Numbered from the stretch's first letter, positions 8,716 to 37,650 are shown. The stretch: DNA of 64,000 nt from Alphaproteobacteria bacterium UBA6324 (GCA_002439085.1 DJSW01000015.1:25393-89392), one strand, 5' to 3'. Notes: generated by a model not told the origin, from the sequence alone. Numbers and translations: made by a program.

Positions 8716-8753
8716 AAGCCCGCCGTTCCCTATGTCGGCGGGCTTGCTTTTTT
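8716..8753 (+). terminator. rho-independent terminator between convergent genes
   Basis: AAGCCCGCCG-ttccctatgt-CGGCGGGCTT followed by gcTTTTTT. An A-run on the other side allows use from both directions. Confidence 0.8.
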
Positions 8754-8779
8754 AAAAATCCTTACGCGTTTAAAAATCC

Positions 8780-20100: not shown

Positions 20101-20323
20101 GCAACCCTTGAACGTCAACGCCGGCGCGGGTGCGGCATTGCACGCCGCCGCTGGTGTAGCGCGTGGACGATGTCTGTTTCGTCACCAGCGTTGAAAAGCT
20201 GGCGGAATTGGCCTTGTATCCGACGGTGCTGACGTTGGCGATGTTGTCCGAAATGATGCTCATGGCGGACGACTGCGCGTTCAATCCCGAAACGCCGGAT
20301 TTCAATGCTCCGAATAAACTCAT
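17135..20323 (-). CDS. flgE: flagellar hook protein FlgE, unusually long (1062 aa)
   Basis: N-terminus MSLFGALKSGVSGLNAQSSAMSIISDNIANVSTVGYK. C-terminus TVDIAEEFTDMITTQRAYSAASKIITTADSMLEELLTIKR. A very large Thr/Gly/Asn/Asp-rich central insert lies between them. Confidence 0.9.
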   Translation of the reverse strand: MSLFGALKSGVSGLNAQSSAMSIISDNIANVSTVGYKANSASFSTLVTKQTSSTRYTSGGVQCRTRAGVDVQGLLSSTSYSTDMGISGNGFFVTTGTSQPSKDDLWSYTRVGNFSVDQDGYLKNDNGYYLQAWPLMAFDGEENASLVKIGDNMFMKAYTDSTGSTVYVNDNIIDSTNMRPINLNTIGGTAQETQNISFGANLPADAPAFDPANPEAGGRYSSSVLIYDSLGNSHNAKLTFTKTENGTWSLDIGMPSGAATLITYSSAETTNDATQDVYSARAQMEFTSIPTNHSTISMETNGKTYVFEFTKDGSTSYSPKANEVVVPVDLSSGIVTVADAVEKFNDVIQATLPSAGRFTVGADGTTIEVQQSTGGSSVKFKVSTTACLQSATNPDPVTGISTGEFELPEIDWDVKNTARIDFSSDNLADYLDKSVTIGQNIYVFRDVEAETTDGVVTVNIANLINNATGKIDTVKLVSLLKQSINDNEPDYTRYVASGSTLEINPTSTGANILVNSGDSASITFQTTSVAAYANQFVTIGDIAGGTAKNFKFVKGIASGTVLDDDTIAVNIDGFAEQDGTKAAPVAVMNELYNTVKAYYQNTTGVTDLSNYFQVNGATMVSSNGYLNQTDWTAELKKSVLEFTGTKATDYIGKNVTISGKTYTFAKADETSTSIDIRKHINTQTFKFNANLTDGSVITLADGTTRKVTATPTAPTDIQLGADLAATLVNLADALGGISDGTDTLTLTGYVVDSDNATNQGFGTMTDNVTAIGMMTALCEKANIADKQNGAKAEVSAFDGYPIQTTDFTVDNTQTTTETGATSLSQKGIGTALDVVGKDNGKQLNQPDTDGMLVLTNTFSFNNVENAQSGSLIPAVSFNADGTPKAINTDKIALEWANGASDMTGNYYESSQINLYIGDTGTANGLTQLAGKFTTNFVTQDGAKYGSYTGVSISEDGIVTAIFDNGETRAIAQIPLATFVDANALEALTGNAYIETTSSGNATLRTAGEGGAGVISANALEDSTVDIAEEFTDMITTQRAYSAASKIITTADSMLEELLTIKR

Positions 20324-21164: not shown

Positions 21165-23144
21165 CTATACTCTGATATTCAAGGCGTAAAGCCCCGAATC
21201 CGCCGCTTCGTCCGCGACATCGCCCGTTGCGGCGTCCGCCCCGTCCGCGGTTTCCCGCCGCCCGTTTTCACCGCGGCGGCCGTCGTCGTCGAACCGTTCG
21301 CCGCGATAGTTGAACGAAAACGATTCGTCGTTCATATTAAATCCGCTGTCCGCCAAAGACTGCTTCAACCCGTCCAGATCGGCGCGCAGCAAATCGACCG
21401 TTTCCGACCGCGCGCCGGACAGGACGGCTTTCATATTGCCATCTTTGTCGATTTCCAAATGCACTTTGATCGTGCCCAGCTCCTTGTGCTTCACAATAAC
21501 GTCGATCTTGTCCAAACCGGCTTTCAACGCCTTTTTGATGCTGACTTTGATCTGGTCGGCCACTTCGCGGGCAGGCGCGTGCTTCACCGCCGGCGCCGCC
21601 TCGGAAACCGCCTTGCCTTTCAATCCCTGATGAACGGCGGCGAAAGGCTGCCCCGCGGGCGCGGACGAAACGGGGGCGGCGGCAGCCGTCTGCGATCCGT
21701 TTTCGGCGGTTGTGTCGGCGGCGGCGAAATTTTGCGCCGTCTGCTCAACGGGCAAAGGAACGACGTTTCCGTTCTCGCCCGCCGCCGGACGTTCGGCCGC
21801 CTGCTGTTGACGCGGCGCCGCTTTGTCGAACGATTTGACCGCCGCCTGTTCGACCGGACGAACCGCCTGTTCCGATTCCACACCGAACAGCGAAACCGTG
21901 TTTTCCTCCGGCGTCGCGACCGTTTTGCGCGGCGCGGCGTCCCGCTGTTTCAACGCATGATGTTCCGGCGCGGCCTGCGCAACGGGTGCGTTTATTTCAA
22001 CGCTGATCGCGATTTTCACATCGGACGGCAAACGGCGCGCCAAATCCTCCGCCTGACGACGCGTCCGCGCGTCCGCCGTTTGATCGAAATCAAAGAACCG
22101 ATCCTGAAAATCAACCGCATCCGCCGTAACGGGGGCGTTGTTTTCCGCCTGAAGAACCGGACGTTTTTCCACTGTTTTTTCCGAATGATCCGGAACAGCG
22201 GCAACAGCTGGCGTTTCCGATTTTATTTCAGCGACCGACGCATCGACAACCTCGGCCGCTTTCGCCAACCGCGGCTTGACCTGTTCGGGAACGGCCGCTT
22301 CATTGTTTTCCACCGGCGCGGCGAAGTCAGCATCCGGACGAACAACAACCGCTTCCGGCGTTTTTACAACAGGCGTGTTTTCCGCAGTTTTTATGACGCT
22401 TTGTTCCGGAACGGCGATCGGCAAATTTTGCATAACGGGCGCATCGTCGCCGTCCGTTTCCGCCCGATCCGCGATTTGCCCGACCGACGCGGCCGTTTCG
22501 GCCACCCGCGATGCGGCAACCGTTTCTGGCGCGGGAGCGTTATTCACCGCCCCCTGCAGAGCCGCGTGAATCAAAATATCCGCCGCCGTCAATTCGTCCG
22601 CGGGAACCGAACGCGCTTCGCCGCTGTCCCGATCGACCGGCGCGGCGACCGTTTCAAACACGGGAAAAGCGGATTGATCAACCGTTCCCGCCCCGTCCGT
22701 TTGCGGCACGACGATCACTTGCGCCGCCGACGCTTCGACATTCTTTTCCGGCACGGGAATCTTTTGCCCATTCGCAGCCACATCCGCCGCGGCGGTTTGA
22801 ACCGGACGGTCTTCGTTCGTTTTTTCACAGGCGCGGGTGCGTTTCAAATGAATCTTCACGACCCTGACGTTTTCCGACGCGCCGCTTTTCGTCCTGAAAT
22901 CCTTCATGGCGGACGAATTGTCGGCGCGCGCGCTCATATTGCTGAAAAAAGTTTCGGCGCTTTTTTCCGTTTTGCCGGAACGCACCTGATCCAACACTTT
23001 CAGGAACGCCTCGCCCGTTTTCATGGCGTCGCCCGATTTTGACGCCTGCGCGGCCGCGTTCGATTCGGCGGCGGAAAACGGCGTTTCCAACCCCGCCGCG
23101 TTCGGCGTCGTACTCATCAAAAAATTAAAAGCGGACAAATCCAT
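21165..23144 (-). CDS. fliK: flagellar hook-length control protein FliK
   Basis: Track ORF 21165..23288. The likely start is the ATG at 23144 (MDLSAFNFLMS...). It has a long Ala/Pro/Val/Glu-rich disordered middle. The C-terminal FliK domain reads VADQIKVSIKKALKAGLDKIDVIVKHKELGTIKVHLEIDKDGNMKAVLSGARSETVDLLRADLDGLKQSLADSGF. Confidence 0.8.
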   Translation of the reverse strand: MDLSAFNFLMSTTPNAAGLETPFSAAESNAAAQASKSGDAMKTGEAFLKVLDQVRSGKTEKSAETFFSNMSARADNSSAMKDFRTKSGASENVRVVKIHLKRTRACEKTNEDRPVQTAAADVAANGQKIPVPEKNVEASAAQVIVVPQTDGAGTVDQSAFPVFETVAAPVDRDSGEARSVPADELTAADILIHAALQGAVNNAPAPETVAASRVAETAASVGQIADRAETDGDDAPVMQNLPIAVPEQSVIKTAENTPVVKTPEAVVVRPDADFAAPVENNEAAVPEQVKPRLAKAAEVVDASVAEIKSETPAVAAVPDHSEKTVEKRPVLQAENNAPVTADAVDFQDRFFDFDQTADARTRRQAEDLARRLPSDVKIAISVEINAPVAQAAPEHHALKQRDAAPRKTVATPEENTVSLFGVESEQAVRPVEQAAVKSFDKAAPRQQQAAERPAAGENGNVVPLPVEQTAQNFAAADTTAENGSQTAAAAPVSSAPAGQPFAAVHQGLKGKAVSEAAPAVKHAPAREVADQIKVSIKKALKAGLDKIDVIVKHKELGTIKVHLEIDKDGNMKAVLSGARSETVDLLRADLDGLKQSLADSGFNMNDESFSFNYRGERFDDDGRRGENGRRETADGADAATGDVADEAADSGLYALNIRV

Positions 23145-23186
23145 TCGAGTGTTCCCTTGCGTAAAACAAAAGCCCGAACACTCAGA

Positions 23187-23202
23187 TGCAACACCCGTGC
23201 CA
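23187..23202 (-). promoter_or_regulatory. sigma54 (-24/-12) promoter for fliK-flgD-flgE
   Basis: The minus strand reads TGGCAC-GGGTG-TTGCA, matching the TGGCAC-N5-TTGCW consensus. The -12 element is ~45 nt upstream of the fliK ATG. Confidence 0.7.
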
Positions 23203-23258
23203 AATTTTAAAACCGGAAAAACCTCTCGCCGCTTTTTTCCGAATCGGATGATTTCCGG

Positions 23259-23285
23259 AACGCGAAGTGGTATCATATTCGCGTT
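23259..23285. promoter_or_regulatory. 8-bp perfect inverted repeat (candidate enhancer/operator site)
   Basis: AACGCGAA-N11-TTCGCGTT. It lies ~60-85 bp upstream of the sigma54 promoter and 29-55 bp upstream of the divergent fucO ATG. Confidence 0.3.
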
Positions 23286-23313
23286 CAATCATTTCAATGA
23301 AAGGATTCCGAAT

Positions 23314-24471
23314 ATGTCTAAACGCTTTATTTTGAATGAAACCAGCTATCACGGTCACGGCGCCGTCAACGAAATCGTGACGGAAATCAAATCCCGCGGC
23401 TTTAAAAAGGCTTTGATCGTCACCGACGCCGATTTGGTCAAATTCAACGTCGTCAAAAAAGTCACGGACATTCTGGACGCGAACGGATTCGCCTATGACG
23501 TTTTCGACCGCGTCAAGGCCAACCCCAGCGTCGCCGTCGTCAAGGCCGGCGTCGAAGCGTTCAAAAAATCCGGCGCGGATTACATGATCGCAATCGGCGG
23601 CGGATCGCCGCAGGATACGGCGAAAGGCATCGGCATCATCATCAACAACCCCGAATTCGCCGATGTCACTTCGCTGGAAGGCGTCGCCCCGACCAAACAC
23701 AAAAGCGTCCCCGTCATCGCCGTTGCGACGACCGCGGGCACGGCCGCCGAAACGACGATCAACTACGTCATCACGGACGAGGAAAAACGCCGCAAGTTCG
23801 TTTGCGTCGATCCGCACGACATCCCCGTCGTCGCCATTGTCGATCCCGACATGATGTCGTCGATGCCGCGCGGGCTGACCGCCGCCACGGGCATGGACGC
23901 CCTGACCCACGCGATCGAAGGGTACACGACGCTGGGCGCGTGGGAATTGGCGGACGCGCTGAACCTCAAAGCGATTCAGCTGATTTCCAAATCCTTGCGC
24001 AAAGCCGTCGAAAACGACCCCGACGGACGCGAAGGAATGGCGTTGGGGCAATACGTCACGGGCATGGCGTTTTCAAACGTCGGATTGGGCGTCGTGCACG
24101 GCATGGCGCACCCGCTCAGCGCGTTTTACAACACGCCGCACGGTGTCGCGAACGCCGTTTTATTGCCCTATGTGATGGAATTCAACGCGGAATACACGGG
24201 TGAAAAGTTCCGTGAAATCGCCCGCATGATGGGCGTTGAAAACGTCGATTCGATGACGCAACCCGAATACCGCAAAGCCGCGATCGACGCCGTGCGCCGC
24301 CTGTCTTTGGATGTCGGCATCCCGCAAACGCTGAAAGAAATCGGCGTCAAGGAAGACGACCTGCCCGCTTTGGCGGACGCGGCGATGGCGGACGTCTGCA
24401 CGGGCGGCAACCCGCGCCCCTGCACCAAAGAGTTGGTGCTGGGCGTGTATAAAAAAGCGTTCAACGGCTAA
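23314..24471 (+). CDS. fucO: lactaldehyde reductase / L-1,2-propanediol oxidoreductase (iron-type alcohol dehydrogenase)
   Basis: The ATG at 23314 lies inside track ORF 23023..24471. The sequence is near-collinear with E. coli FucO as I recall it: ILNET.., ADY(M/L)IAIGGGSPQDT, TINYVITDEEKRRKFVCVDPHDIP, VHGMAHPL.AFYNTPHGVANA, DVCTGGNPR. Confidence 0.9.
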   Translation: MSKRFILNETSYHGHGAVNEIVTEIKSRGFKKALIVTDADLVKFNVVKKVTDILDANGFAYDVFDRVKANPSVAVVKAGVEAFKKSGADYMIAIGGGSPQDTAKGIGIIINNPEFADVTSLEGVAPTKHKSVPVIAVATTAGTAAETTINYVITDEEKRRKFVCVDPHDIPVVAIVDPDMMSSMPRGLTAATGMDALTHAIEGYTTLGAWELADALNLKAIQLISKSLRKAVENDPDGREGMALGQYVTGMAFSNVGLGVVHGMAHPLSAFYNTPHGVANAVLLPYVMEFNAEYTGEKFREIARMMGVENVDSMTQPEYRKAAIDAVRRLSLDVGIPQTLKEIGVKEDDLPALADAAMADVCTGGNPRPCTKELVLGVYKKAFNG

Positions 24472-26541: not shown

Positions 26542-27519
26542 TCAGGTCACTTCCGTCACCGCGCGGATGTTGCCCTGACGGTTGATTTGGACGACGCGCA
26601 GCTTGTCGTGCATTTCGGCAATCGTTTTTTCGCGGTCGATCGTCGGATAGCAGTGCAGGATGCGATCGGTGAACGCTTTATAGGCGGCTTCGGAGTTTTC
26701 GGCGTGGATGGTGGCGAAGCAGTTGTCGTGGCCGGAACCCATCAGCTCCCACAACGCCCCCGCGTTTGCCGTTGAAATTTCACCGCCGATGATCGCGTCG
26801 GGCGTGAAACGGACGACCAAGTCGATCAGTTTCGGATACGTCATCGTGTTCGTTTGTTCGGTACGCGACAACACCAAATGAACGTGATTCGGATGCGGCA
26901 CGATCAGTTCGCGCGTATCTTCAATCGTGATCACGCGTTTGTGCGAATCCAAAATCGTCAGCAGGTTGTTCAGAAACGTCGTTTTACCTGTCGCCGTCGC
27001 GCCGGAAACCAGAATGTGATCGCCGCGCTTGATCGACAAAATCAAACGTTCGTAAGGATCTTCGGGGTTTTCAACCTCTTTCAGCTTGTTCAGCTTTTGC
27101 AGACGCTCGCCGGCTTTCAACCCGTAATCGCCCAGCCCGAATTTAACGTCGTCGGAATGGACGCGGACGCACATCGCGATGCCGCCGGTCAAATCCTCGT
27201 TGTCGTACATGACGTTTTTTCCGGCGATGCCCGTGAAACGGTGATCCCCCGGCAGCGTCGCATAAACGGCGGGCGACCCTTGTTCCGGATCGAACGGCAG
27301 TTCAAACGTGTTGGCGATGATGTGCATGATATCCGTCAAATACGTCCGCGACAGGTTCGCGTCCTGCTGACACGCCCACGGGTGCGCGCGCCGGCCGCGC
27401 AGACGCAGCCAGATTTCATTCGGACGGTTGATCGCGATTTCCTCCACGTTGTCCTGTTCGTACCAATACGACAGGTAGCGCAGGGTTGACCGTAAAACCT
27501 GAAAAGCGTCCGTTCCCAT
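26542..27519 (-). CDS. virB11: type IV secretion ATPase VirB11
   Basis: 325 aa. Walker A SGATATGKTTFLNNLL, Walker B/Asp box RVITIEDTRE, His box GHDNCFATIHA. A GAAGGGGGAAAT SD precedes the ATG. It starts 15 nt after the virB10 stop. Confidence 0.9.
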   Translation of the reverse strand: MGTDAFQVLRSTLRYLSYWYEQDNVEEIAINRPNEIWLRLRGRRAHPWACQQDANLSRTYLTDIMHIIANTFELPFDPEQGSPAVYATLPGDHRFTGIAGKNVMYDNEDLTGGIAMCVRVHSDDVKFGLGDYGLKAGERLQKLNKLKEVENPEDPYERLILSIKRGDHILVSGATATGKTTFLNNLLTILDSHKRVITIEDTRELIVPHPNHVHLVLSRTEQTNTMTYPKLIDLVVRFTPDAIIGGEISTANAGALWELMGSGHDNCFATIHAENSEAAYKAFTDRILHCYPTIDREKTIAEMHDKLRVVQINRQGNIRAVTEVT

Positions 27520-27533: not shown

Positions 27534-30500
27534 TTAGAAGTCCAGTTCCGGCACGGGATCGACAGGTTCATCCTTTTTAACCTGCGTTTCCTGCTGCGGC
27601 ACCGGCTGCTGGAATTGCGGCTGTTGCTGCTGCGGTTTGTCGTCGATCAGATTGCTCTGGCGCGGCGGCGGCGGCTGGCCGGTGTAGTTGTTGTAGTATA
27701 TCTGCTGTTGTTGCTGCATATTGTTCGGATCGTTCGGGTTTGTCTGACTGCCCTGCGCGTTCGGATCAACCATGCCGCCGGCATCTTCGTCGTCCTTTTC
27801 GTTTTCATCCGGTTTGTCCGGATCGATCAAAACTTCTTTTTTGTTGATATACTCGTCTTCGTAATCTTCCATTTCACTGCGCAGCCACAAATCCGTTTTC
27901 GCGTAAACGGTGACGCGCGTGCCGGCTGGAACGAACAAACGCGTTTTCAGCTTTTTCGTTTCTTCAAACAAATCGTCAGCAACTTCCTGCATCACTTCGG
28001 AAAATCTGCTTCGCGCGTCTTCGGCGGCTTCCTGCCGGCCGGATTTGGCCACCTGTCCGCTTTCGCCGACGGCCGCGGTGTCATTCGTCGCCATCGCGTA
28101 CAAAATCGCCGACGAAACCGTCGATTGCAAAATCGGCAGCCCGTATTTCTTCAACAGCTGGCGATCCATATACGCGCCGACACCCGCGCGTCCCGACGCG
28201 TCGCCCGACACGCCGGATTCAAACACAAACGCCGCGCCGTCCGGACGAACCAGACGTTTCCACGAAATTTCGACCTTTGACGCCGAACCGACCTCTTCCT
28301 GCGCGGACGTTCCCGTCAATTCGCCGATAATGCGGCTGCCGGCGGGAATGATGATCTTGCGTCCGGATTCGGAATAGATGTTGCGTTCGACAATGGCCGA
28401 CAAGGGGATATCCGACTGTTCGGTGTCGATGGAACGCGCCAGAACCGCGGGAATCGCCTTGTCCGCCAAAATCGCGTTTTCCATGTTGACGCGGTACGAC
28501 GAAACGTTTTTCAAAATCCCCTGTTTGTTCCAGTTCCGGCTGCGCTTTTGTTTTTTCAGCGTATCCTCTTCCGTCGCGGACACGCCGATGCCTTTTCCGG
28601 GGCGGATTTGACGGCGGTAGGCCAGCTGCATCGCGCGCAGCTTTTTAATCCGCGCGGGATCGTAGCGTTCCCCTTTGCCGGTGCCGCCGCCGGAACCCAG
28701 ATTTTTGCCGCGGTAACGGTAGCTGTCCGGATCGAACGTGCCGAAAACGGAAACGCGGCCGTCCTTTTTATCCTCTTGCTTTTGATCGGGGGCGGGCGGA
28801 TTGATCGAACCGATGATGTTGCCGTCAAGGTCGATCACGTTGCCGTTCGCGTCCACGCGGCCAATGATGTTGCCGTTTTCATCCACAACCGTTCCGTCGG
28901 GTCTGATGACGCCGATTCGATTGCCGTTTTTGTCAAAGGCGAAACGCTTTCCTTTCAGCTTGTCGCTGAGCGGCGTCAGCTTGCCGCCTTTCCAAATTCC
29001 CAAAACGGTGCCGTCTTCGTCCACGATTTCGCCGTTGGCGTTGATCCGGCCGATCACGTTGCCGTCCAAATCGACGACACGGCCGTCGGGCATGATGACG
29101 CCGATGATGTTGCCGTTTTCGTCGCGGATGGGTTCGCCTTCGATCACGGAACCGATCACGTTGCCGTTCAGGTCAACGACCGTCCCGTCGGGCAGAACGC
29201 GGCCGATGATGTTGCCGTTCGCATCGCGGACGAAACCGTCTTCGCCGACAATGCCCAAAAACTTGCCGTCGCGCCCCACGGCGATTTTGACGTTTTTGGA
29301 TTGCGACGGCGGACTGGCGCGCCCGATCACGTTGCCGTTCAGATCAACGACCGTCCCGTCGGGCAGCATCCGCCCGATCACGTTGCCGTTCAGGTCAACG
29401 ACCGTTCCGTCGGGCAGGACGCGGCCGATCACATTGCCGTTCGCGTCATAAACCAGACGGTCTTCGCCGGCTTTGGTCAAAAAGTTGCCGTTCGCATCGA
29501 CGATGCCGTCTTCCAGCAAAGCGCGGCCGATCACGTTGCCGTTCATATCGACGACCGTCCCGTCGGGCAGCATCCGCCCGATGATGTTGCCGTTTTCATC
29601 GCGCAGGTATCCGTCTTCGCCGACAATGCCCAAAAACTTGCCGTCTGGGCTGAACACGGCGCCTTTCGGATAGACTTTGCCGATAATGTTGCCGTTCAGG
29701 TCGATGACCGTCCCGTCGGGCAGGACGCGGCCGACGATGTTGCCGTTCGCGTCGCGGATGAACCCGTCCGCGTCGATGACGCCCAAAGGCTTGCCGTCGG
29801 GGCCGTAAACCATTTTGCCGATCATGCTTTTCGGGAACAGCGAACCGTCGTCGTTTGTGCTGATCAGCGTGATCATGCACAAATGCGCCCCCGCGTTGTC
29901 CAACGCCTGACCGCTGGCCATCAAACGCCCCAAAACCTGCTGGCGGTCGTCAACGATCGTGCCGTCGAAATGCACTTTGCCGACGACGTTGTTCTTGCCG
30001 TCCTTACATTCCTCGCCGATCGGAACGACGCGCCCCAAAAACTTCCGTTCGTCCGTCAAAACGCGGGTGGAGGCCGTGACAAAGCCGACATCCTCGCCGC
30101 GGTCGTTCATCACGCGCCCGCGCGGCAGAACCGTGCCGACGATTTTACCGTCAACGGCGATGACCCGCCGTCCGGACGGCACGGAAACGCCCAGCCGCTT
30201 CCCGTCGTTTTTCAACTCTTCGCCGTCCAGCTCGCCGATAAAAGCACCGCCATCGGGATTGACGCCGTAACGTCCGCCCAAAACGCGCGCAATGATTTTG
30301 CCGTTGTCATCCACCGCGTATTTCAGATCCGCCGCAACGCCCAGAACCTTTTTATCCTTGTCCAAAACGGCGCCGTCCACCGTAAAGCATCCCAGCACGT
30401 TGCCCTGATCACCCAAAGCTTCGCCGTTGGCGACGATTTTTCCGATGATGTCGTCGGCGGGACCGCGCACCTGCCCTTTGGACACGACGCGCCCCAAACG

Positions 30501-33500
30501 TTTGCCGTTTTGATCCCTGACCAACCCTTCAAAATCGACGCAACCGAGCTTTTCGCCCTTGGTGTCGATCGCATTGCCCTGCGCCGTCATGCGCCCGATG
30601 ATTTTGCACGGTTCGTTGATGACGGAATCCTGTCCCAACGCCAGACCGATCTGCGCGTTGGACGCGTCCACCAGCGAACGGTCGTAGTTCAGCCGCCCGA
30701 TTTGACGGCCGGTCGTGTCGATCACTTTGCCCAGATCGTCGATCGTCCCCAACGTGCGGCACTGTTTCCCGACGGGAACGGCGTTGACCACGCCCTTGCC
30801 GATCACGACGCTGGCGGAATCCGCGATCGTGTCGTCGGCCTGCAGCGTGCCCAAAACGCGATCCGACCCCGCCGATTTCAGCTGGCCGGAAGAATCAATC
30901 TTGCCGATGACTTCGTTTTTAAAGTTCAGCCCCAGCCCGTCTTTGACCGCGTAGCCGATCACCGTGCCGTCCAGCGACACCACCGTGCCGTCCGGCATCA
31001 CGCGGCCGATCACGTTGCCTTTCAAATCGACGACCGTTCCGTCTGCCAGCACACGGCCGATCAGTTTGCCGTTTTCATCATAGACCAGCCGTTCGGGCGG
31101 CCCCGCGTGTCCGATCACGTTGCCGTTCAAATCAACAACCGTTCCGTCGGGCAACATCCGCCCGATCACGTTGCCGTCCAAATCGACGACCGTTCCGTCG
31201 GGCAAAACGCGACCGATGATGTTGCCGTCCTTGTCATAAACCAGACGTTCCAAAGTGTTGCCGATTTTGCCGATGACCTTGCCGCCGTCCTCGACGACCG
31301 ACCCGCCGGCGCGGTAACGCATCGGTTTGCCGTTGGGCCCCAAAACGGGGTTGCCGTCCTTGTCAACGATCGTGCCGTCAATGCCGACATAGCCGATGAT
31401 CTTGCCGTCGGGACCGATGATCGGCTGACCGACCGGAATAACTTCGCCGATCACGCGGCCGTCCTTGTCAACGACCTTGCCGTTCAGATCGGCCTTGCCG
31501 ATCACGCGGCCGGCGGCGTCAACGACCGTGCCGTCGGGCATGACGACGCCCAAAATCTCGCCATTGGGGCCGACGACCTGCCGCAAACCGACAAAAATCT
31601 TGCCGACGACCTTGCCGTCCTTGTTCACGATTTCGCCGGACGGCATTTTCAACCGCCCCAACGGACGGGAAAGCAGATCGACCGCCGCGCCGGACGGTAG
31701 CAGACGACCGATCGTTTCACTGGTTTTGATGTCGAAAACGTCGGCTTTGCGGGGGATGACGCCGCCGGTGATGCGGTCGTCTTCGCGCACCAAAGCGGCG
31801 ATTGTCACCGCCCCGACGAAATCCGTTCCTTTCAGATTCATCGCCTTGGCTATGGAATCGCCGCGGGCATACAGCTCCGGCTTGTCGTTGACGGCGATGC
31901 CCTCGGCCAGCGCCGCACCCAAAAACTTGTTGTCCGAATCGACAAAGACGGAATCGGGGCGCAAGCAACCGATCTGTTTGCCCGCGGCGTCGTACAGCGT
32001 CCCGTCGATTCCGGTGCGCCCCAGATAGGCGTCCTTGCGCCCGATCGCCCGCGCGCCGTACGCGACGCGCCCGAGGAAATCGCCGTTTTCGTCGGTCAGC
32101 ATATCGTTCATATGAATATAGGCGGCGCGTTTAAAATCCTTATCCACAACGCGGCCGTCAATCAATATGTCGCCCGCGGGCTGGCACGCCCCGCGCAAAG
32201 CGATCCCGCCCGTCGGCGCGACGCGCGCGACCGTTTGGCCGCTGAGATCGACAACCGATCCGTCCGGCATCGTCCGGCCGACCGTCGCGGCTTTGCCGTT
32301 GGATACGGAACCGTCCGGCATCACCCAACCGATCGTGCGGCCGTCGCGATCCAAAACACCGCCGAAAGGCATGATCATCCCCGACGCTTCGTTTTTGGAA
32401 TTCAAAACGACGCCGTAGGGATCCAGACATCCCAGAATCTTGCCCTGTTTATCTTGAACTTTGCCCGCCGCGTCCGTCAATCCGGCGACACGCCCGTCCG
32501 CGTTCAAAGCGACGGCGGTATCGAAAACGCGCCCCAAAACGACTTTCTGGTTGTCCAGAATTTCACCGTTCGCGGCCAAGCAACCGACAAATTCGCCCTT
32601 TGTCGTGATCATCTGCCCGTCCAGATTGGCGTACCCCAACGACATACAGCCGGGGCCGACGCCGATGTTCTGGCGCGCCAATGCGCCCTCCACCTTTCCT
32701 TCGGCGGACAGGAAACGCTTGTCGGGCAGGATGCGGCCTTTGATCTGGCCGTCGCCGACGACACTGCCGTCCGGCATGACGCGGCCGACAACGCCGCATT
32801 GGTCGCCGATAACCGTGCCGCGCGGCAAAACGGCGGCGATGATTTCTTCGGAATCGTCAACCACCGTGCCGTAAGGCGTCAGACAGCCCAAAGGATCGCC
32901 CTTGAAGTTGATCGGGCTGCCGTCCGAATCGACTTTGCCGATCACTTTGCCGTTCCAATCCAGCAAAGCCCCCTCTTGCACATAGCCGCCAACCGGATTG
33001 CCGGCCATATCGACGACCGTCATCGACGCCGTCAGCCGGCCGACCTGTTTGTTCGCGGACATGACGGAACCGTCCGTGCTGATCCGGCCGATCATTTTGC
33101 ATCCCGCGCCGATGGCCAAGCCCTCTTTGATCACGCGGCCGATGATGTTGCCGTCCTTGTCCACGACAAAACCGTTGGGCAAAACGCGGCCGATGATGTT
33201 GCCGTCCTTGTCCACGACCGTGCCGTCGGGCATGACGATGCCCAAAACGTTGCCCTGCGCGTCAACGACCGCGCCTTGCGGCATGACGGAACCGATGATG
33301 TTGCCGTTCGCGTCAACGATCGTGCCGTCGGGGTTGACATAGCCGATGATATTGCCGTTTTCATCGACGACCGTGCCGTCGGGCATGATCCGCCCGATCG
33401 GATTGCCGTTTTTATCGTAAGCGATGCCCGTTCTGACCGCCGCGCCGATCACGTTGCCGTTCAAATCGACGATCGTTCCGTCGGGCAAAGCGTAACCGAT

Positions 33501-34388
33501 CAGCTTGCCGTCCTTGTCAACGACGCGCCCGTCGGGCAGAATCGTCCCCAAAATCTCGCCGTTCGGCCCGATCGCCAGCCGCGTTCCCTCCGCGACGCCG
33601 ATGATGTATCCTTGGTCGTCAACGACCGTGCCGTCGGGGCGCAAAGTCCCGATCCGCTTGCCGTCCAGTCCATATACGACGCCGTTTTCATCGGCGTACC
33701 CGATCGGTTTGCCGTCGGGCCCCAGAATGACGCGCCCCTTTTGGCGCAGCTGATCCAAAATGGAACCGCCGCCCCCCGGCGCTTCGTCGCAGACGCCGCA
33801 CATACTGGTGTCGATGGCCATCGCCGAAACGGGAACGATCACGCGCCGACCGATGCCGCCGAATGTTTCGTCGCTCCACCTGATCGAGATGTTGGATTGT
33901 ATGGTGCGCGCCGTTTTCGGTTCCCAGCGCACGACGACGTTGCACGTCATGTCGCCGCTCAGCACGATGTCTTTGCGGCATTTGTTTTCCAAAACGAATC
34001 CGTCTTCCTGTTTGTTTTCAAATTCGACGGACGTGATGCCGACGCGGCCGGACGACGCCGACAGGGTCAGCGTCCCTTCCGCCGTCGTACCCAAAACGAC
34101 CTGATCGAAACGCAGGCTTTCGGGCGACGCGACCAACCGGACGGTTGTCGGTTGAGGTTCTTCTTCAGCCAGATTGAACGAATCCGCGTTGCCGCCGGTG
34201 ATGCTGCTGGAGCTTTCGGCCGAACCGTCAATCGTGACCTCGGCGTCTTTTTTGCGCTCCTCGTCCCCGCTCAACAGAATGATGACGCCCGTCAGGAACG
34301 CCAGCAAAGCGACGATCCCGACAACCAACAGCATTCTGTTGGACTTTTTTAAATATCTGTCTGACGAGCTGAGTAATTCTTCGTTCAT
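27534..34388 (-). CDS. virB10: giant VirB10/TrbI-family type IV secretion protein (2284 aa from ATG 34388)
   Basis: Track ORF 27534..34409 begins at a TTG. The ATG at 34388 overlaps the virB9 stop (ATGA). Layout from the N-terminus: an N-terminal TM helix (LLVVGIVALLAFLTGVIILL); an Ig-like domain; a ~1640-aa repeat array; a TrbI/VirB10 core (AILADKAIPAVLARSIDTEQSDIPLSAIVERNIYSESGRKIIIPAGSRIIGEL...VEISWKRLVRPDGAAF...GDASGRAGVGAYMD...FVPAGTRVTVYAKTDLWL); and a Q/N/P-rich tail. Confidence 0.85.
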   Translation of the reverse strand: MNEELLSSSDRYLKKSNRMLLVVGIVALLAFLTGVIILLSGDEERKKDAEVTIDGSAESSSSITGGNADSFNLAEEEPQPTTVRLVASPESLRFDQVVLGTTAEGTLTLSASSGRVGITSVEFENKQEDGFVLENKCRKDIVLSGDMTCNVVVRWEPKTARTIQSNISIRWSDETFGGIGRRVIVPVSAMAIDTSMCGVCDEAPGGGGSILDQLRQKGRVILGPDGKPIGYADENGVVYGLDGKRIGTLRPDGTVVDDQGYIIGVAEGTRLAIGPNGEILGTILPDGRVVDKDGKLIGYALPDGTIVDLNGNVIGAAVRTGIAYDKNGNPIGRIMPDGTVVDENGNIIGYVNPDGTIVDANGNIIGSVMPQGAVVDAQGNVLGIVMPDGTVVDKDGNIIGRVLPNGFVVDKDGNIIGRVIKEGLAIGAGCKMIGRISTDGSVMSANKQVGRLTASMTVVDMAGNPVGGYVQEGALLDWNGKVIGKVDSDGSPINFKGDPLGCLTPYGTVVDDSEEIIAAVLPRGTVIGDQCGVVGRVMPDGSVVGDGQIKGRILPDKRFLSAEGKVEGALARQNIGVGPGCMSLGYANLDGQMITTKGEFVGCLAANGEILDNQKVVLGRVFDTAVALNADGRVAGLTDAAGKVQDKQGKILGCLDPYGVVLNSKNEASGMIMPFGGVLDRDGRTIGWVMPDGSVSNGKAATVGRTMPDGSVVDLSGQTVARVAPTGGIALRGACQPAGDILIDGRVVDKDFKRAAYIHMNDMLTDENGDFLGRVAYGARAIGRKDAYLGRTGIDGTLYDAAGKQIGCLRPDSVFVDSDNKFLGAALAEGIAVNDKPELYARGDSIAKAMNLKGTDFVGAVTIAALVREDDRITGGVIPRKADVFDIKTSETIGRLLPSGAAVDLLSRPLGRLKMPSGEIVNKDGKVVGKIFVGLRQVVGPNGEILGVVMPDGTVVDAAGRVIGKADLNGKVVDKDGRVIGEVIPVGQPIIGPDGKIIGYVGIDGTIVDKDGNPVLGPNGKPMRYRAGGSVVEDGGKVIGKIGNTLERLVYDKDGNIIGRVLPDGTVVDLDGNVIGRMLPDGTVVDLNGNVIGHAGPPERLVYDENGKLIGRVLADGTVVDLKGNVIGRVMPDGTVVSLDGTVIGYAVKDGLGLNFKNEVIGKIDSSGQLKSAGSDRVLGTLQADDTIADSASVVIGKGVVNAVPVGKQCRTLGTIDDLGKVIDTTGRQIGRLNYDRSLVDASNAQIGLALGQDSVINEPCKIIGRMTAQGNAIDTKGEKLGCVDFEGLVRDQNGKRLGRVVSKGQVRGPADDIIGKIVANGEALGDQGNVLGCFTVDGAVLDKDKKVLGVAADLKYAVDDNGKIIARVLGGRYGVNPDGGAFIGELDGEELKNDGKRLGVSVPSGRRVIAVDGKIVGTVLPRGRVMNDRGEDVGFVTASTRVLTDERKFLGRVVPIGEECKDGKNNVVGKVHFDGTIVDDRQQVLGRLMASGQALDNAGAHLCMITLISTNDDGSLFPKSMIGKMVYGPDGKPLGVIDADGFIRDANGNIVGRVLPDGTVIDLNGNIIGKVYPKGAVFSPDGKFLGIVGEDGYLRDENGNIIGRMLPDGTVVDMNGNVIGRALLEDGIVDANGNFLTKAGEDRLVYDANGNVIGRVLPDGTVVDLNGNVIGRMLPDGTVVDLNGNVIGRASPPSQSKNVKIAVGRDGKFLGIVGEDGFVRDANGNIIGRVLPDGTVVDLNGNVIGSVIEGEPIRDENGNIIGVIMPDGRVVDLDGNVIGRINANGEIVDEDGTVLGIWKGGKLTPLSDKLKGKRFAFDKNGNRIGVIRPDGTVVDENGNIIGRVDANGNVIDLDGNIIGSINPPAPDQKQEDKKDGRVSVFGTFDPDSYRYRGKNLGSGGGTGKGERYDPARIKKLRAMQLAYRRQIRPGKGIGVSATEEDTLKKQKRSRNWNKQGILKNVSSYRVNMENAILADKAIPAVLARSIDTEQSDIPLSAIVERNIYSESGRKIIIPAGSRIIGELTGTSAQEEVGSASKVEISWKRLVRPDGAAFVFESGVSGDASGRAGVGAYMDRQLLKKYGLPILQSTVSSAILYAMATNDTAAVGESGQVAKSGRQEAAEDARSRFSEVMQEVADDLFEETKKLKTRLFVPAGTRVTVYAKTDLWLRSEMEDYEDEYINKKEVLIDPDKPDENEKDDEDAGGMVDPNAQGSQTNPNDPNNMQQQQQIYYNNYTGQPPPPRQSNLIDDKPQQQQPQFQQPVPQQETQVKKDEPVDPVPELDF
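28809..33737 (-). repeat. intragenic coding repeat array in virB10 (~17-18-aa units, consensus about LPDGTVVDLNGNVIGRV)
   Basis: I count about 30 canonical (D/N)G-x-(V/I)(V/I)D-xx-G-xx-(I/V/L)G units plus many degenerate ones. At DNA level the copies are diverged, roughly 85-90% identity by eye between the best pairs (e.g. ~29320-29440 vs ~31105-31230). Confidence 0.85.
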
Positions 34389-35926
34389 TGCGTCCGCACA
34401 ACTATGCAAGTCACCCCGCGGCGACCCAATTGATTACACAATTTGTCCCCCGCCTCGATACTGCCGACAGGCCCGATGCGCAAACGGAACAAATCCCTTG
34501 ATTCACCCTCCGCGACGGCGTCAACGGAATAATACGGCTCGAAAGCCCCGAGCAAATCCTTGTTTTTACGCGAAATGACGTCCCATTTCTGTTCCAGCGG
34601 AGCGATTTCCGCGCCCGATCCCAATTCAATGGCGATCGTTTCGGCCGGCGTCGAACGGTAACGGAAAGCGCGCGACGCGTCCCGTCCCTGCTGCGCCGAA
34701 AACTGCGCGATCTGCGCCGCGTTCATCATCGGGTTCATCATGTTCGGCATCCCCGCGCCGCCCATGGCCGCCGCGCCGTTCAACGCGGTCATCGTCTTCG
34801 CGCCGCCCGCGGCCGGATTGTACCCCGGCGTCGTGATCATCGGCCCCGGCGCCCATTGCGGCTGGACGGATTTTTCGTATTCTACCCAATCCGTCCCGTA
34901 GGCCGGATCCTTTCTGATCTTCAGACACAGGATGCGTTTGCCGTTGCGCAAAACCAAATCGCCGATGCCTTCGACAACCATCAACCGTCCGTTCGGCCCG
35001 CGCGTCCTGAAACCGATCGGCACTTCGGACCCCTGCGACAACAGGTTGACGATCGGCCGTTCGGTCATGGTCAGCGCTTTCGGTCCGAAGTCGATATAGG
35101 TAAAGATTTCGTCACGCCACACGCGTTCCGGCGCGATTTCCATATCGGCGGGATTCGGAATGAAAACGTCGATGTCGAAACGCAGTTTTTCGGGATCGAC
35201 TTCGATGTCCGCCAGCCAGTCCTCCGTCCCGTTTTTGGTCGTGTTTTTCTTTCCCGACCGCATTCCGCCGAACATCCCGCCCGAACCGGCGGAAACGTTC
35301 ATGACGCCCGCCGCCGCGCCCGTTGCGACCGCGCCCGAAGCAAACGGCGTCGTGCCGGAATCGTCGGGAACGAATTTGGCGTCGTTGATCACGATGTCAA
35401 CGACCGAGTTTGTGATTCTGTCCGTGTTGAACGTTTCGCTGCGCAGGTAAAAGACGTACCTGTTTCCCGAACGTCCGAACACGATCATGTTCGTGTCCAT
35501 GCCGACCAGATCGACGCTGGCGGCGAAAACCATCAAAGCGTTCTGCGCGACCTTTTGCGCCCCGAACGCGCTTTCGTTGCCCAGAAACACGTTTTCGATC
35601 AGTTCCCACGACGGGAAATTGATCAGGGTGTGCATCCCTTCGCGAATGCGCAGGGGCAAAACCAGATCGGGCGTCCAGTAATATCTGGAATATCCGGGTT
35701 TGCTCTGCCCTTCGCCCAAATGTTCCATCGGCTTGTTCCACGCCTTTTGCTGCATCCCCAAAGACCAGAACGGCATATCCATTTCGGAATACTGCCCGTT
35801 CGACTGTTCAATCGCCGCGTCCATTGATTCGCGCGCGGCGGTCTGTTGCGCCGAAACGTTTTGCGCGAACAGGCAAAACGTCAGCGAAACGACTGCGAAA
35901 AGGCGGATTTTCAAATTAGCTTTCAC
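34385..35926 (-). CDS. virB9: VirB9/TrbG/CagX-family T4SS outer-membrane core protein with a C-terminal SPOR-like domain
   Basis: GTG start preceded by AAGAAGG. Signal peptide MKANLKIRLFAVVSLTFCLFAQNVSAQQ. VirB9 N-domain (LPLRIREGMHTLINFPSWELIENVFLGNESAF...NALMVFAAS..TNMIVFGRSGNRYVFYL). VirB9 C-domain (VWRDEIFTYIDFGPKAL...LVLRNGKRILCLKI). After a Gly/Ala/Met-rich linker comes LFRLRIGPVGSIEAGDKLCNQLGRRGVTCIVVR. Confidence 0.85.
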   Translation of the reverse strand: MKANLKIRLFAVVSLTFCLFAQNVSAQQTAARESMDAAIEQSNGQYSEMDMPFWSLGMQQKAWNKPMEHLGEGQSKPGYSRYYWTPDLVLPLRIREGMHTLINFPSWELIENVFLGNESAFGAQKVAQNALMVFAASVDLVGMDTNMIVFGRSGNRYVFYLRSETFNTDRITNSVVDIVINDAKFVPDDSGTTPFASGAVATGAAAGVMNVSAGSGGMFGGMRSGKKNTTKNGTEDWLADIEVDPEKLRFDIDVFIPNPADMEIAPERVWRDEIFTYIDFGPKALTMTERPIVNLLSQGSEVPIGFRTRGPNGRLMVVEGIGDLVLRNGKRILCLKIRKDPAYGTDWVEYEKSVQPQWAPGPMITTPGYNPAAGGAKTMTALNGAAAMGGAGMPNMMNPMMNAAQIAQFSAQQGRDASRAFRYRSTPAETIAIELGSGAEIAPLEQKWDVISRKNKDLLGAFEPYYSVDAVAEGESRDLFRLRIGPVGSIEAGDKLCNQLGRRGVTCIVVRTQ

Positions 35927-35937: not shown

Positions 35938-36714
35938 TTATTCGTTAGCACTTTCGATGGAATAGCCGTCAACCGAGAACCCCAGCGGGTTTTTCAGCCG
36001 GTTGATGTATTTGACCTGCCGCTGGTCTTTGGCGAAATATTTGATCGACAGCCGGACGCGCCAGCGGGAAACGGCGGGTTCCTCGGCTTCGGGCAGCATA
36101 TCGCGCGTGACGATGTAAACCAGCCAGATGTTTTGCTGGCGCACGACGGATTCAATGCGGACTTCGCGCGTCAAACCCTCCAGCTTGATGCGCGACAGCC
36201 AATCCTTGACCGTTTTGGAAAACTGGTTATAAACCTGCGCCGACGACATCCAGCGCAAAGGCCCGTCGGGCCCCCAGCGGAACGACATTTCATCAACGTC
36301 GGAAACCATCGTGTTGCGCAGCAGGACGTATTGACGGATCATGGCTTCGGAAATGATGTCTTCGGCCGCCATATCCTTGGACAGCGGACGGATTCTGACG
36401 ACCTGTTCGTCCTTGCTTTGGAACGTCAGCAAAAACGGTTCGACGCGTTTCAACGGCATCAAATGAACGATGGCCAGCAACAAAACCAGATTGACGCACA
36501 AAGCGACGGCGGACACGATCGCAAAAGCGCGCGCCGTCCACAAATACCGCCGTTCGCGCAGCTGATCGACCGACACTTCCTCAACCTGCGGCAAAGCGGG
36601 CGCGGGCTTTTTCTTCGCGTCGGCGACGGGGCGCGCGGCGTCCGCCTTTTTCAAAGGCTGTGTTTCGGCGTCTTTTACCGTCAGCTGTTGTTTCGATCTC
36701 ACCGGTCTGGGCAT
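35938..36714 (-). CDS. virB8: VirB8-family T4SS inner-membrane protein (paralog b)
   Basis: 258 aa with a single TM (AFAIVSAVALCVNLVLLLAIVHL). NTF2-like periplasmic part with IRQYVLLRNT.., WLVYIVTRD.., RLKNPLGFSVDGY. Confidence 0.8.
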   Translation of the reverse strand: MPRPVRSKQQLTVKDAETQPLKKADAARPVADAKKKPAPALPQVEEVSVDQLRERRYLWTARAFAIVSAVALCVNLVLLLAIVHLMPLKRVEPFLLTFQSKDEQVVRIRPLSKDMAAEDIISEAMIRQYVLLRNTMVSDVDEMSFRWGPDGPLRWMSSAQVYNQFSKTVKDWLSRIKLEGLTREVRIESVVRQQNIWLVYIVTRDMLPEAEEPAVSRWRVRLSIKYFAKDQRQVKYINRLKNPLGFSVDGYSIESANE

Positions 36715-36727: not shown

Positions 36728-36925
36728 TCATCCCGCCGCCGTCATCCAATCGGGCAGATTGGCCGGCAACTTTAAAAGCATACAGGCACACGGGGAACGT
36801 TTCAATTCAGAAATGTCCCGACCGATGCCGACCGGTTCTTTTTCATAAATGGAACCGGCGCAGGCGTTCAACACGACGCACGCCGTTACGATCAAAACCG
36901 CTTTTCCGATTGTTTTCATTTTCAT
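36728..36925 (-). CDS. virB7: small lipoprotein, VirB7-like by size and position (65 aa)
   Basis: This is the C-terminal part of track ORF 36728..37315. ATG at 36925 follows a GGAGAA SD. MKMKTIGKAVLIVTACVVLNAC has a lipobox (LNAC). It sits between the two virB8 paralogs. No sequence-level homology is claimed. Confidence 0.55.
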   Translation of the reverse strand: MKMKTIGKAVLIVTACVVLNACAGSIYEKEPVGIGRDISELKRSPCACMLLKLPANLPDWMTAAG

Positions 36926-36945: not shown

Positions 36946-37650
36946 TTATTTTTTCTGCCGCGCCAAATGATATTGCGTCACCGTGAACCCCAACGGGTTG
37001 CGCAGGCGGGAAAACATCACGGCATTGCTGGAATAATAGCGGAATTGGATCGTGGCGATCCAATGTTCTATCACGGGGGGGCTTACCGTTTTGTCCATGC
37101 GCCGCGTGTCGAAAAAGATTTGCCAGCTGTTCCATCCCTCTTTGATGATGCGCTTGATGTCCGTTTCCACCGTAACCTGCGGCGCCGTTTCCGGATCGGG
37201 GAAATAGCGGGGCATTTCCTTTGTCGCGAAAGCTTCGTACACTTCGGGCGACGACATATAGCGCACAAGGCCGCCGCCGCCCCACTGGATGCGCATTTCG
37301 CGGGCGTTTTTCCACACGTTGTTGCGGGCGGTCACATATTGGCGCACAAACATTTCCGCCAGAATGTCCATCGCCGGCATATCCGGATGCAGCGGTTCAA
37401 AATAGGACAGGTTTTCCGAATACGTCGGCGCCGTAACCAAAACGGAATCCACCTCCGCCTCTTTGGAAATGTGAATCAGCGACAGGGCGAAAACGACGGT
37501 CGAAACGACCAGCGCGAAACACAGCACGCTGAAAAACCGCGACAGCCAGATAAAAGTGGCAACGCGTCCCCCGTCCGTCGGCGGTTTACCCAACCCCGCG
37601 GATTTCCTGACATTCGGGCGAACAGACGCATTTGGCATACTTTTTTCCAT
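36946..37650 (-). CDS. virB8: VirB8-family T4SS protein (paralog a)
   Basis: 234 aa with a TM (FFSVLCFALVVSTVVFALSLI). Motifs FVRQYVTARNN.., WQIFFDTRR.., RLRNPLGFTVTQY are parallel to paralog b. Confidence 0.8.
   Translation of the reverse strand: MEKSMPNASVRPNVRKSAGLGKPPTDGGRVATFIWLSRFFSVLCFALVVSTVVFALSLIHISKEAEVDSVLVTAPTYSENLSYFEPLHPDMPAMDILAEMFVRQYVTARNNVWKNAREMRIQWGGGGLVRYMSSPEVYEAFATKEMPRYFPDPETAPQVTVETDIKRIIKEGWNSWQIFFDTRRMDKTVSPPVIEHWIATIQFRYYSSNAVMFSRLRNPLGFTVTQYHLARQKK

Follow-up and report, generated by a model that had tools for sequence, protein, structure and literature searches.

A giant VirB10 protein with a beta-hairpin repeat array in a type IV secretion locus of uncultured gut Alphaproteobacteria

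In type IV secretion systems (T4SS), VirB10 is the subunit that reaches across both membranes and controls the opening of the outer-membrane pore. The locus studied here raises the question of how such a core protein can be about five times its canonical size, and what the additional sequence might do. The window, a stretch of 64,000 nucleotides (nt) of Alphaproteobacteria bacterium UBA6324 (GCA_002439085.1, DJSW01000015.1:25393-89392), encodes on its minus strand a protein of 2284 residues, which a preliminary description made from the sequence had read as a VirB10 expanded by a repeat array. From profile searches, structure prediction and comparison with related genomes, we consider it likely that this is a genuine VirB10 whose periplasmic segment forms a large and rigid, probably disulfide-stapled scaffold of beta-hairpins that enlarges the core complex of the T4SS.

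Domain organization of the giant VirB10

The C-terminal domain was recognized by Pfam TrbI (PF03743) at residues 1973-2169, with an E-value of 1.9e-28 and 100.1 bits against a cutoff of 35 over profile positions 2-188 of 188, which reproduces exactly the coordinates first proposed for the barrel (Table 1). A phmmer search against the PDB retrieved ComB10 (6.8e-15), and also TrwE, CagY, Xanthomonas VirB10 and TraF. In an AlphaFold2 model of residues 1500-2200 (model 2), the hairpins are followed by a mostly disordered linker of about 110 residues with one conserved helix, and then by a barrel carrying two long helices. Outside this helix, which takes up model residues 412-429, the predicted local distance difference test score (pLDDT) of the linker stays below 50; its ERYDP..R motif is conserved in alignment A1. 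Foldseek with the model barrel found TrwE (1.9e-12), VirB10 of 6gyb, CagY, TraF, ComB10, F TraB and DotG at target TM-scores (TMt) of 0.58-0.66; the entries matched by barrel and antenna were TrwE 8rt6/7o3j, 6gyb, 6x6k and 3jqo, with E-values from 1e-9 to 2e-12.

The N-terminus agrees with this assignment. A hydrophobic segment at residues ~19-40 is the only Kyte-Doolittle window above 1.6 in the whole protein (window at residues ~15-43), giving the bitopic topology of VirB10 with a short cytoplasmic N-terminus and a single transmembrane (TM) helix. Tail and TM helix are common to all orthologues of subclade A and to the N-terminal product of a sister subclade with split genes, described below. 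No proline-rich linker was found between TM helix and barrel; an immunoglobulin (Ig)-like domain, the hairpin array and the ~110-residue linker are present instead. Pfam, PDB matches, AlphaFold2 and Foldseek thus agree on the order first proposed, namely TM anchor, Ig-like domain, hairpin array and C-terminal TrbI domain. The five-fold enlargement was likewise confirmed: the nearest relatives of normal size have 510-630 residues, and the VirB10 of Rickettsia typhi has 481 residues with a Pro-rich tract and no hairpin array (PMC2653234).

The reading frame is unbroken on the minus strand from 27534 to 34409, which gives 2291 codons counted from a TTG and 2284 residues from the ATG at 34388. The latter is the likely start codon, because all orthologues open with MNEELLSSSD and because this ATG overlaps the stop codon of the upstream virB9 as ATGA.

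Between the Ig-like domain and the linker lie about 96 hairpin units with the consensus R-V-L-P-D-G-T-V-V-D-L-N-G-N-V-I-G. The 17-residue period is dominant: in a scan for the motif G..[IVL]G, 36 of 73 spacings were exactly 17, and lag 17 gave the top autocorrelation. The initial estimate of ~1640 residues of beta-hairpin units holds, with a unit of mainly 17 residues. The repeats had also been called novel, which they are not, being matched by Pfam Bflower_2 (PF21785; E 3.8e-121, 397.5 bits against 38, 17 matched stretches), Bflower (PF21784; 1e-42, 145.4 bits against 25) and DUF3659 (PF12396; 3e-46), as well as by the YD/Rhs models RHS_repeat of Pfam (2.6e-18, 66 bits) and TIGR01643 of NCBIfam (YD repeat; 1.9e-24, 85 bits). 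AlphaFold models were the source of the beta-flower families (PF21784/PF21785/PF21786, clan CL0395), which date from 2023 (Durairaj et al., PMC10584680). Their members fold into small, shallow barrels of 4-, 5- or 6-fold symmetry, with hairpin 'petals' and a [DNEQ]xxG tip, and have no PDB homologue and no known function; they stand alone, with ~96 residues and 8-12 strands, and some are lipoproteins (PMC10584680). The tip motif is present in the giant VirB10 as D-x-[ND]-G at unit positions 10-13, with D in 61% of the units at position 10 and G in 100% at position 13. Unlike the described beta-flowers, its ~96 hairpins form a continuous series inside a T4SS subunit.

An AlphaFold2 model of residues 61-760 (model 1), built from an alignment of 41 sequences, reached a pLDDT of 85 and a predicted TM-score (pTM) of 0.73. 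It consists of a beta-sandwich, a low-confidence CxxC loop, a short helix and an uninterrupted series of hairpins, in a pattern of strand 5, turn 4, strand 3 and turn 5 at pLDDT ~90 that carries on through the degenerate block. Modelling of the repeats, proposed at the outset as a check, thus returned the expected hairpins, though no structural match in the PDB: with model 1, Foldseek matched the Ig-like domain and nothing in the array, in agreement with the published absence of PDB homologues for beta-flowers (PMC10584680). A Foldseek search of a viral predicted-structure library gave just partial matches of Ig-like and tail-fibre type.

The Ig-like domain is a beta-sandwich of the ASH/PapD-like/MSP type (pLDDT ~75-87), for which Foldseek found the ASH domains of HYDIN and CEP192 at TMt 0.6-0.7. 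It contains two of the 18 cysteines of the protein; two more form the CxxC of the following loop (pLDDT <50, model residues 136-148), and degenerate blocks A and B of the array hold eight and six, respectively. Across 41 homologues (alignment A2, in which columns C137/C140 correspond to C197/C200 in query numbering, +60), at least 8 of the 12 cysteines within residues 61-760 are invariant, as are glycines. This pattern fits a periplasmic protein that is probably disulfide-bonded. The cysteine spacing C-51-C-22-C-51-C recurs in the array. It could point to an ancient duplication of a module, but the BLAST match between blocks A and B (E 1e-32, ~25% identity, several registers) is indistinguishable from generic repeat similarity.

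Integrity, distribution and evolution of the array

Long repeat arrays are prone to two trivial explanations, mis-assembly of the expansion and decay of a gene that makes just its C-terminal ~430 residues, and the databases at first seem to favour them. A database protein of 433 residues (P0001) is 100% identical over a 321-residue C-terminal query segment and differs at one residue over its full length, and the corresponding locus of an independent assembly (GCA_002437805.1; L001) carries an antisense call of 1489 residues instead of virB10. Both calls are errors of gene calling. The alignment of L001 to the window begins upstream of virB8, reaches nt 29571 and shows 98.6% identity along 9.1 kb. 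It is broken just by two scaffold N-runs in the most repetitive block, with the frame open on both sides; these two gaps and shadow open reading frames (ORFs) account for the short call. In the closest relative, L002, the protein has the same length as that of the window, with no indels in the array. A scan for orthologues using one genome per species gave eight gap-free, full-length examples of 2142-2348 residues and without internal breaks. A profile scan extended this to 283 related loci, and more than 40 of the best 80, from species-level genomes, have single ORFs of 2015-2666 residues with the same N-terminal anchor. With so many independent, N-free genomes carrying an intact ORF, and with the strong purifying selection on the array reported below, we reject artefact and pseudogene alike as having a negligible probability; neither the assembly error nor the internal stop or frameshift that the preliminary description had named as grounds for doubt was found.

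A search with the full-length protein returned 888 matches at E<1e-20, and the best 120 are mostly proteins of 2000-2600 residues with Bflower and TrbI domains, whose annotation goes no further than 'hypothetical', 'DUF3659 domain-containing' or 'TrbI/VirB10 family protein'. The hosts are all uncultured gut and rumen Alphaproteobacteria, represented by RUG, RGIG, UMGS, HGM, MGBC, horse and chicken metagenome-assembled genomes. Named members are 'Acetobacter sp. CAG:977', 'Proteobacteria bacterium CAG:495' and Candidatus Scatocola; the NCBI taxonomy places the last in Rhodospirillales incertae sedis and labels the relatives as Alphaproteobacteria, Rhodospirillales or Rhodospirillaceae. The lineage may correspond to RF32 of the GTDB taxonomy. 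Truncated calls of 430-560 residues are common in the protein database, and because gene callers produce these and antisense shadow ORFs, the architecture is hidden in current annotations. In the window, such shadow ORFs lie over the array at 28548-31700 (+; 1050 residues) and 32112-34352 (+; 746 residues).

A different question is whether the array, though real, is a variable structure. To our knowledge, CagY and DotG are the only well-studied enlarged VirB10 proteins, and they belong to the two structurally most elaborate T4SSs. CagY (Cag7) of the Helicobacter pylori Cag T4SS (1927 residues; PDB 6odi, 6x6s) resembles the giant VirB10 in its size, in having long repeats N-terminal to a conserved barrel, and in belonging to a chromosomal T4SS of effector type with an expanded core complex. 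CagY repeats are reported to be recombining, length-variable modules. The hairpin repeats might behave in the same way, recombining to change their length and so to tune or disguise secretion, or might be exposed as an adhesin, and some observations favour this. The gene contains tandem DNA repeats of 51, 102 and 153 nt that are up to 90% identical. Indels between species occur at two hot-spots, with sizes near multiples of the unit (51, 52 and 156 residues at hot-spot 1; 54 and 116 at hot-spot 2), and the hot-spots coincide with the DNA tandem repeats of highest identity and with the gaps of L001, where the most repetitive block broke a short-read assembly.

Outside these hot-spots, however, the array is free of indels among species whose C-terminal domains are 66-92% identical. 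Nine aligned orthologues have a collinear array, in which degenerate blocks A and B contain no indels and repeat block 1 (residues 218-427; 84-100% identity) is better conserved than the TrbI barrel itself. Each 17-residue unit is 79-84% identical to its positional orthologue and 57-58% to its best paralogue, and since units are closer to the former than to any of the latter, concerted evolution of the CagY kind, which we looked for by this comparison, was not found. All blocks of the array have a ratio of nonsynonymous to synonymous substitutions (dN/dS) of 0.03-0.12 when compared with two orthologues, a mark of strong purifying selection, and the barrel has one of 0.11-0.12. Length is also fixed within species, in clusters whose members were drawn from many independent metagenomes: in one cluster of 141 members the 15 listed all have 2201-2202 residues, and in a second all full-length members have 2265-2266. 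Finally, the array lies N-terminal to the antenna that spans the outer membrane, and in the split variants half of it belongs to a protein anchored in the inner membrane. On these comparisons the array is a fixed structure with individually specified units, the opposite of CagY in its behaviour, and none of the profiles searched recognized CagY repeats in it. A rheostat or variable surface structure is therefore very unlikely, and the suggestion that the array might be surface-exposed, and possibly adhesive or variable, is not supported.

Two observations concern the C-terminal part of the protein. Relative to L002, the TrbI domain differs at 24 residues, 20 of which lie in the two antenna helices. 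Elsewhere the two proteins are 97-100% identical, and synonymous divergence shows no increase; the TrbI domain has a dN/dS of 0.37, where the remainder of the protein has ~0.05. Diversifying selection acting locally, or gene conversion over a short tract, might explain this pattern at the outer-membrane pore. The C-terminal tail varies, with 44-57% identity in all orthologues but L002. Its extreme end (PELDF, PELF, PQLF, PALF or IELF) persists even where the domains of homologues are just 43-46% identical, and this ELF-type terminus may be a conserved docking or sorting motif.

Split genes, origin and proposed architecture

In a sister subclade whose C-terminal domains are 46-50% identical, and which includes CAG:495 and Ca. 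Scatocola, the gene is present as two adjacent ORFs in ten gap-free loci. Split genes were noted in L047, L049, L034, L036, L035, L083, L040, L064, L062, L057 and L079 (at ~nt 2400-11200 of each; in L047 at 2562-6584 and 6569-11122), with a combined length of ~2650-3700 residues. ORF-N (1138-1463 residues) comprises the VirB10-type cytoplasmic tail, the TM anchor, the Ig region and 32-58 hairpin units detected by motif scan, and is collinear with the window protein from residue 1 to ~1150-1270. ORF-C (~1500-2330 residues) comprises the TrbI barrel, preceded by 35-92 units, and opens in eight of the ten loci with a Sec signal peptide of the AxA type, for example MKKMFKAVKYFLLTVFFANIVTVADA followed by QEITAINF; in L062 and L057 its first methionine lies inside repeat sequence. 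When the split was mapped onto the window protein, the mature N-terminus of ORF-C, a generic hairpin, could be aligned at many places.

The split genes bear on the topology in two ways. Since the ORF-C half would be exported by Sec and the ORF-N half is tethered to the inner membrane, the array is predicted to be periplasmic. Of the two locations first envisaged for the array, the periplasm is thus supported by the single TM helix and by the split genes, and an extension beyond the outer-membrane cap is not; the N-terminal half of the split clade, being anchored in the inner membrane, is without means to cross the outer membrane. The split genes also argue that a continuous polypeptide from inner-membrane anchor to outer-membrane barrel is dispensable, and contact between the membranes, if it is maintained, must on this reading run through the repeat regions.

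The origin of the array was sought in an exhaustive search of 1.84 billion representative proteins, which revealed a sharp break. All matches down to ~40% identity are giant proteins or obvious fragments, and the next VirB10 proteins (33-40% identity) have 510-630 residues, in which the TM anchor and Ig-like domain are joined to TrbI by a proline-rich linker. No hairpins and no Bflower match were found in these relatives. An example is the TrbI/VirB10 protein of Microvirga tunisiensis (WP_152714064.1, 603 residues), which shares TM helix and Ig-like domain with the giant protein and has a C-terminal domain in the range of 33-40% identity found among such relatives, but carries a proline-rich linker in place of the hairpin array. 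The Ig-like domain predates the expansion, because the nearest relatives of normal size already possess it, and the array thus appears to have replaced or extended the proline-rich linker. One protein of 625 residues (P0223; L085, 6001-7878), encoded in a locus with the order virB8, small ORF, virB9, virB10, contains a few hairpins below threshold (Bflower_2, 25 bits); it could represent a step in the evolution of the array, or an array that was secondarily reduced.

The architecture that we favour is the following. An ancestral Ig-like domain followed by ~96 hairpins of beta-flower/YD type would take the place of the usual proline-rich periplasmic linker of ~100-150 residues, and the whole array would be periplasmic and stabilized by disulfides (18 cysteines, at least 8 of them invariant). 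The solved complexes 3jqo and 6gyb each contain 14 chains; at a stoichiometry of ~14, the array would add ~2.4 MDa of rigid beta structure, which could form an enlarged periplasmic ring, cage or sheath joining the inner-membrane complex to the outer-membrane cap. The SPOR domain fused to the partner protein VirB9 would probably take part in the scaffold. As the split variants suggest, the connection between the membranes could be made by association of hairpins with hairpins, requiring no continuous polypeptide. The enlargement probably marks an undescribed architecture of a secretion machine and not a variable surface structure, and the 'very different core-complex geometry' raised in the preliminary description is plausible.

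Several points weigh against this reading or limit it. Stoichiometry and scaffold role are drawn by analogy with solved complexes, and the full-length product and its location are predicted from sequence and models. Model 2 is of moderate confidence (pLDDT 64, pTM 0.29). The NCBIfam equivalog thresholds were missed (T4SS_VirB10 NF038091, 90 of 220 bits; ComB10 NF038092, 100 of 300 bits), so that by its profile scores the giant VirB10 is a divergent member of the family and not an equivalog of the curated subfamilies. No other T4SS genes (virB2-6, virD4, effectors) were found among the ~30 larger ORFs scanned in the window. The higher-order geometry of the array may be one of closed five-fold flowers, of a continuous sheet or another. 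Autocorrelation gave no super-period of 85 residues, nor of 68 or 102, but only 17 and a weak 51; discrete domains of five hairpins were considered with the same outcome, and autocorrelation does not decide the geometry. We lean towards a continuous rigid body rather than discrete flowers in the predicted structure, because of the high pTM of model 1 and the absence of the 85-residue super-period.

An alternative role, which would be compatible with a scaffold, is that the hairpins are mainly multivalent binders of peptidoglycan or of membrane lipid and so anchor or position the machine in the envelope. The beta-flower families share their Pfam clan with the lipid-binding Tubby C-terminal domain, and the partner VirB9 gained a peptidoglycan-binding domain in the same clade: it is unusual in possessing a Gly/Ala-rich insert and a C-terminal SPOR domain, the tail of which (FRLRIGPV...LC..LGRRG..C.VVRTQ) is kept in unsplit and split subclades alike. 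No ligand-binding residues are known for the beta-flower family, however, the net charge of the array is -34, which is unfavourable for binding anionic lipid, and the conserved sequence that each unit has of its own suggests specific packing over generic multivalent binding. We regard envelope binding as the main function as unlikely.

The matches to YD and Rhs models raise the further thought that the hairpins build a hollow cocoon, as in Rhs, Tc and teneurin proteins, enclosing cargo or part of the channel. Units of the form 'YD..GN.IG' are present, both profile matches are significant over the whole protein, and Foldseek with model 2 gave local matches to the Rhs proteins 8uy4, 8qja and 8cp6. 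Those matches have TM-scores of 0.05-0.08 at a root-mean-square deviation of ~27 A, and the higher-confidence model 1 has no Rhs match in its top 50. Neither an Rhs core nor a plug or toxin domain was found, no single stretch matched by RHS_repeat is significant, and the unit of 17 residues is shorter than YD repeats, which have ~20-21. We consider such a shell highly improbable.

Within the scaffold reading, we are more reserved about its furthest step, in which the array would assemble into a multi-megadalton periplasmic superstructure (~14 x 96 hairpins) whose hairpin-hairpin interface replaces the covalent bridge between inner and outer membrane; we put this somewhat short of an even chance. 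If true, T4SS core complexes would gain a new architectural class, found in a widespread lineage of gut bacteria, and the orphan beta-flower/DUF3659 repeat its first biological role.

Enlarged VirB10 proteins as such are already known. DotG (IcmE) of the Legionella Dot/Icm system (PDB 7muq, 9ngw) has a repeat insert between TM anchor and barrel, as has the giant VirB10, and its C-terminal domain (Foldseek TMt 0.59) forms the outer-membrane dome. The insert of DotG consists of pentapeptide repeats. The array of the giant VirB10 is ~3x longer and of another repeat class, and no Pentapeptide family is among its Pfam matches. Next to CagY and DotG, the hairpin VirB10 represents a third, independent and larger expansion. 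What is new is a different and structurally unsolved repeat class, its occurrence throughout a clade, the natural split-gene variant and the fusion of VirB9 with SPOR. Our literature search, the coverage of which left out most subscription journals, found no published description of a hairpin-repeat VirB10. The sequences concerned are hundreds of database proteins from Alphaproteobacteria of human, ruminant, horse, mouse and chicken guts that have never been cultured. The natural split amounts to an evolutionary experiment on whether energy coupling needs covalent continuity of VirB10 across the envelope.

The T4SS locus and its surroundings

The giant gene occupies the position of virB10 in a virB-type operon, with CagX/VirB9 upstream and T2SSE/VirB11 downstream. 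According to Pfam matches, translation and gene junctions, the co-oriented order is virB8, a gene for a VirB7-like lipoprotein, a second virB8, virB9, virB10 and virB11 (Table 1). The VirB7-like ORF was also called as a gene of 65 residues in the independent assembly L001.

Table 1. Features of the giant VirB10 and of its T4SS locus, in window coordinates
Feature	Residues	Coordinates	Strand	Basis and remarks
Giant virB10 coding sequence	2284 + stop	27534..34388	-	ORF list, translation, Pfam TrbI and Bflower families
Cytoplasmic tail (conserved SSSDRYLKKSNR) and single TM helix	1-18; ~19-40	34266..34388	-	Hydropathy
Ig-like (ASH/PapD-like/MSP-type) beta-sandwich	~85-192	33813..34136	-	AlphaFold2, Foldseek; invariant Cys pair C137, C149
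Invariant CxxC in loop between Ig domain and array	C197, C200	33789..33800	-	Alignment A2
Beta-hairpin array, ~96 units of 17 residues	~218-1860	28809..33737	-	Unit parse, Pfam, AlphaFold2
Repeat block 1, well conserved	218-427	33108..33737	-	84-100% identity to orthologues, no indels; dN/dS 0.04-0.05
Degenerate Cys-containing block A	428-929	31602..33107	-	8 Cys; 70-78% identity to more distant orthologues, 98% to L002; zero indels in 8 species; hairpins in AlphaFold2 at pLDDT ~90
Repeat block 2	930-1145	30954..31601	-	Contains indel hot-spot 1
Indel hot-spot 1	~1032-1100	31089-31295	-	51-nt tandem repeats at 30982-31228
Degenerate Cys-containing block B	1146-1520	29829..30953	-	6 Cys; 69-78% identity to more distant orthologues, 97% to L002, no indels
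Repeat block 3	1521-1860	28809..29828	-	Contains indel hot-spot 2; N-gaps of L001 fall here
Indel hot-spot 2	~1642-1700	29289-29465	-	Highest-identity DNA repeats: 51-nt unit, 90%, 29320-29442
Linker, mostly disordered, conserved helix over YDPARIKKLRAMQLAYRR (~1911-1928)	1861-1970	28479..28808	-	AlphaFold2 model 2
VirB10/TrbI beta-barrel	1971-2172	27873..28478	-	Pfam TrbI, phmmer, Foldseek
Antenna-projection helices	~2077-2100, 2117-2145	27954-28160	-	Two long helices in AlphaFold2
Q/P-rich low-complexity C-terminal tail	2173-2284	27537..27872	-	Translation
virB8 paralogue 1		36946..37650	-	Pfam VirB8 6e-15
VirB7-like lipoprotein (MKMKTIGKAVLIVTACVVLNAC followed by AGS...)	65	36728..36925	-	Lipobox in translation
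virB8 paralogue 2		35938..36714	-	Pfam VirB8 1.5e-21
virB9 (CagX)	513	34385..35926	-	Pfam CagX 8.6e-14, SPOR 4e-5
virB11 ATPase		26542..27519	-	Pfam T2SSE; own ribosome-binding site; 14 nt downstream of virB10

This order recalls the rvh T4SS of the Rickettsiales, in which two virB8 genes stand around a small RvhB7 ORF and are followed by virB9, virB10, virB11 and virD4 (PMC2653234). Both systems are chromosomal and scattered and share the duplicated virB8 flanking a virB7-like ORF, followed by virB9-virB10-virB11 (PMC2653234). In Rickettsia, the two virB8 genes lie on opposite strands and virD4 follows virB11 (PMC2653234), whereas in the window the virB8 genes are co-oriented, and virD4 is absent after virB11, where dxs lies on the other strand. 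The rvh system further includes several virB6 paralogues and second copies of virB4 and virB9 at other sites. The host, moreover, is flagellated (flagellar genes in the window), the window has a GC content of 57%, and the organism, of a gut lineage that NCBI places under Rhodospirillales, does not belong to the Rickettsiales. We regard rvh as a resemblance, not as membership. The cluster is flanked by genes of housekeeping type (dxs, a DEAD helicase, flagellar hook genes, polA, ileS and uvrB), and no mobile-element genes were found among the larger ORFs scanned in the window.

Synteny with the relatives breaks at ~24631, between the upstream region of dxs and a gene for an iron-containing alcohol dehydrogenase (Fe-ADH; 23023-24471). 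Two independent relatives, L001 (~98% identity) and L002 (~95%), have the same sequence of genes downstream of dxs (truB-rpsO-pnp). The alignment of the window ends at 24631/24632, beyond which it runs instead into Fe-ADH and fliK/flgD/flgE. Either the genome was truly rearranged at this point, or the assembly of the window contains a chimeric join.

Other large proteins are encoded in the same window. FlgE (17135-20323, -) has 1062 residues and flagellin (9906-11807, -) has 633, where ~400 and ~300-500 are usual, respectively; both appear enlarged, as do the envelope-machine proteins VirB9 and VirB10 of this genome. A protein of 1380 residues (4527-8669, +) has N-terminal hydrophobic segments followed by more than 1000 residues of Ala/Gln/Thr-rich, apparently helical, coiled-coil-like sequence, and matched no Pfam family at E<1e-5. 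A BatD / VWA-TPR / VWA cluster resembling the Bat aerotolerance operon lies at 43866-48531 (-), downstream of the T4SS island.

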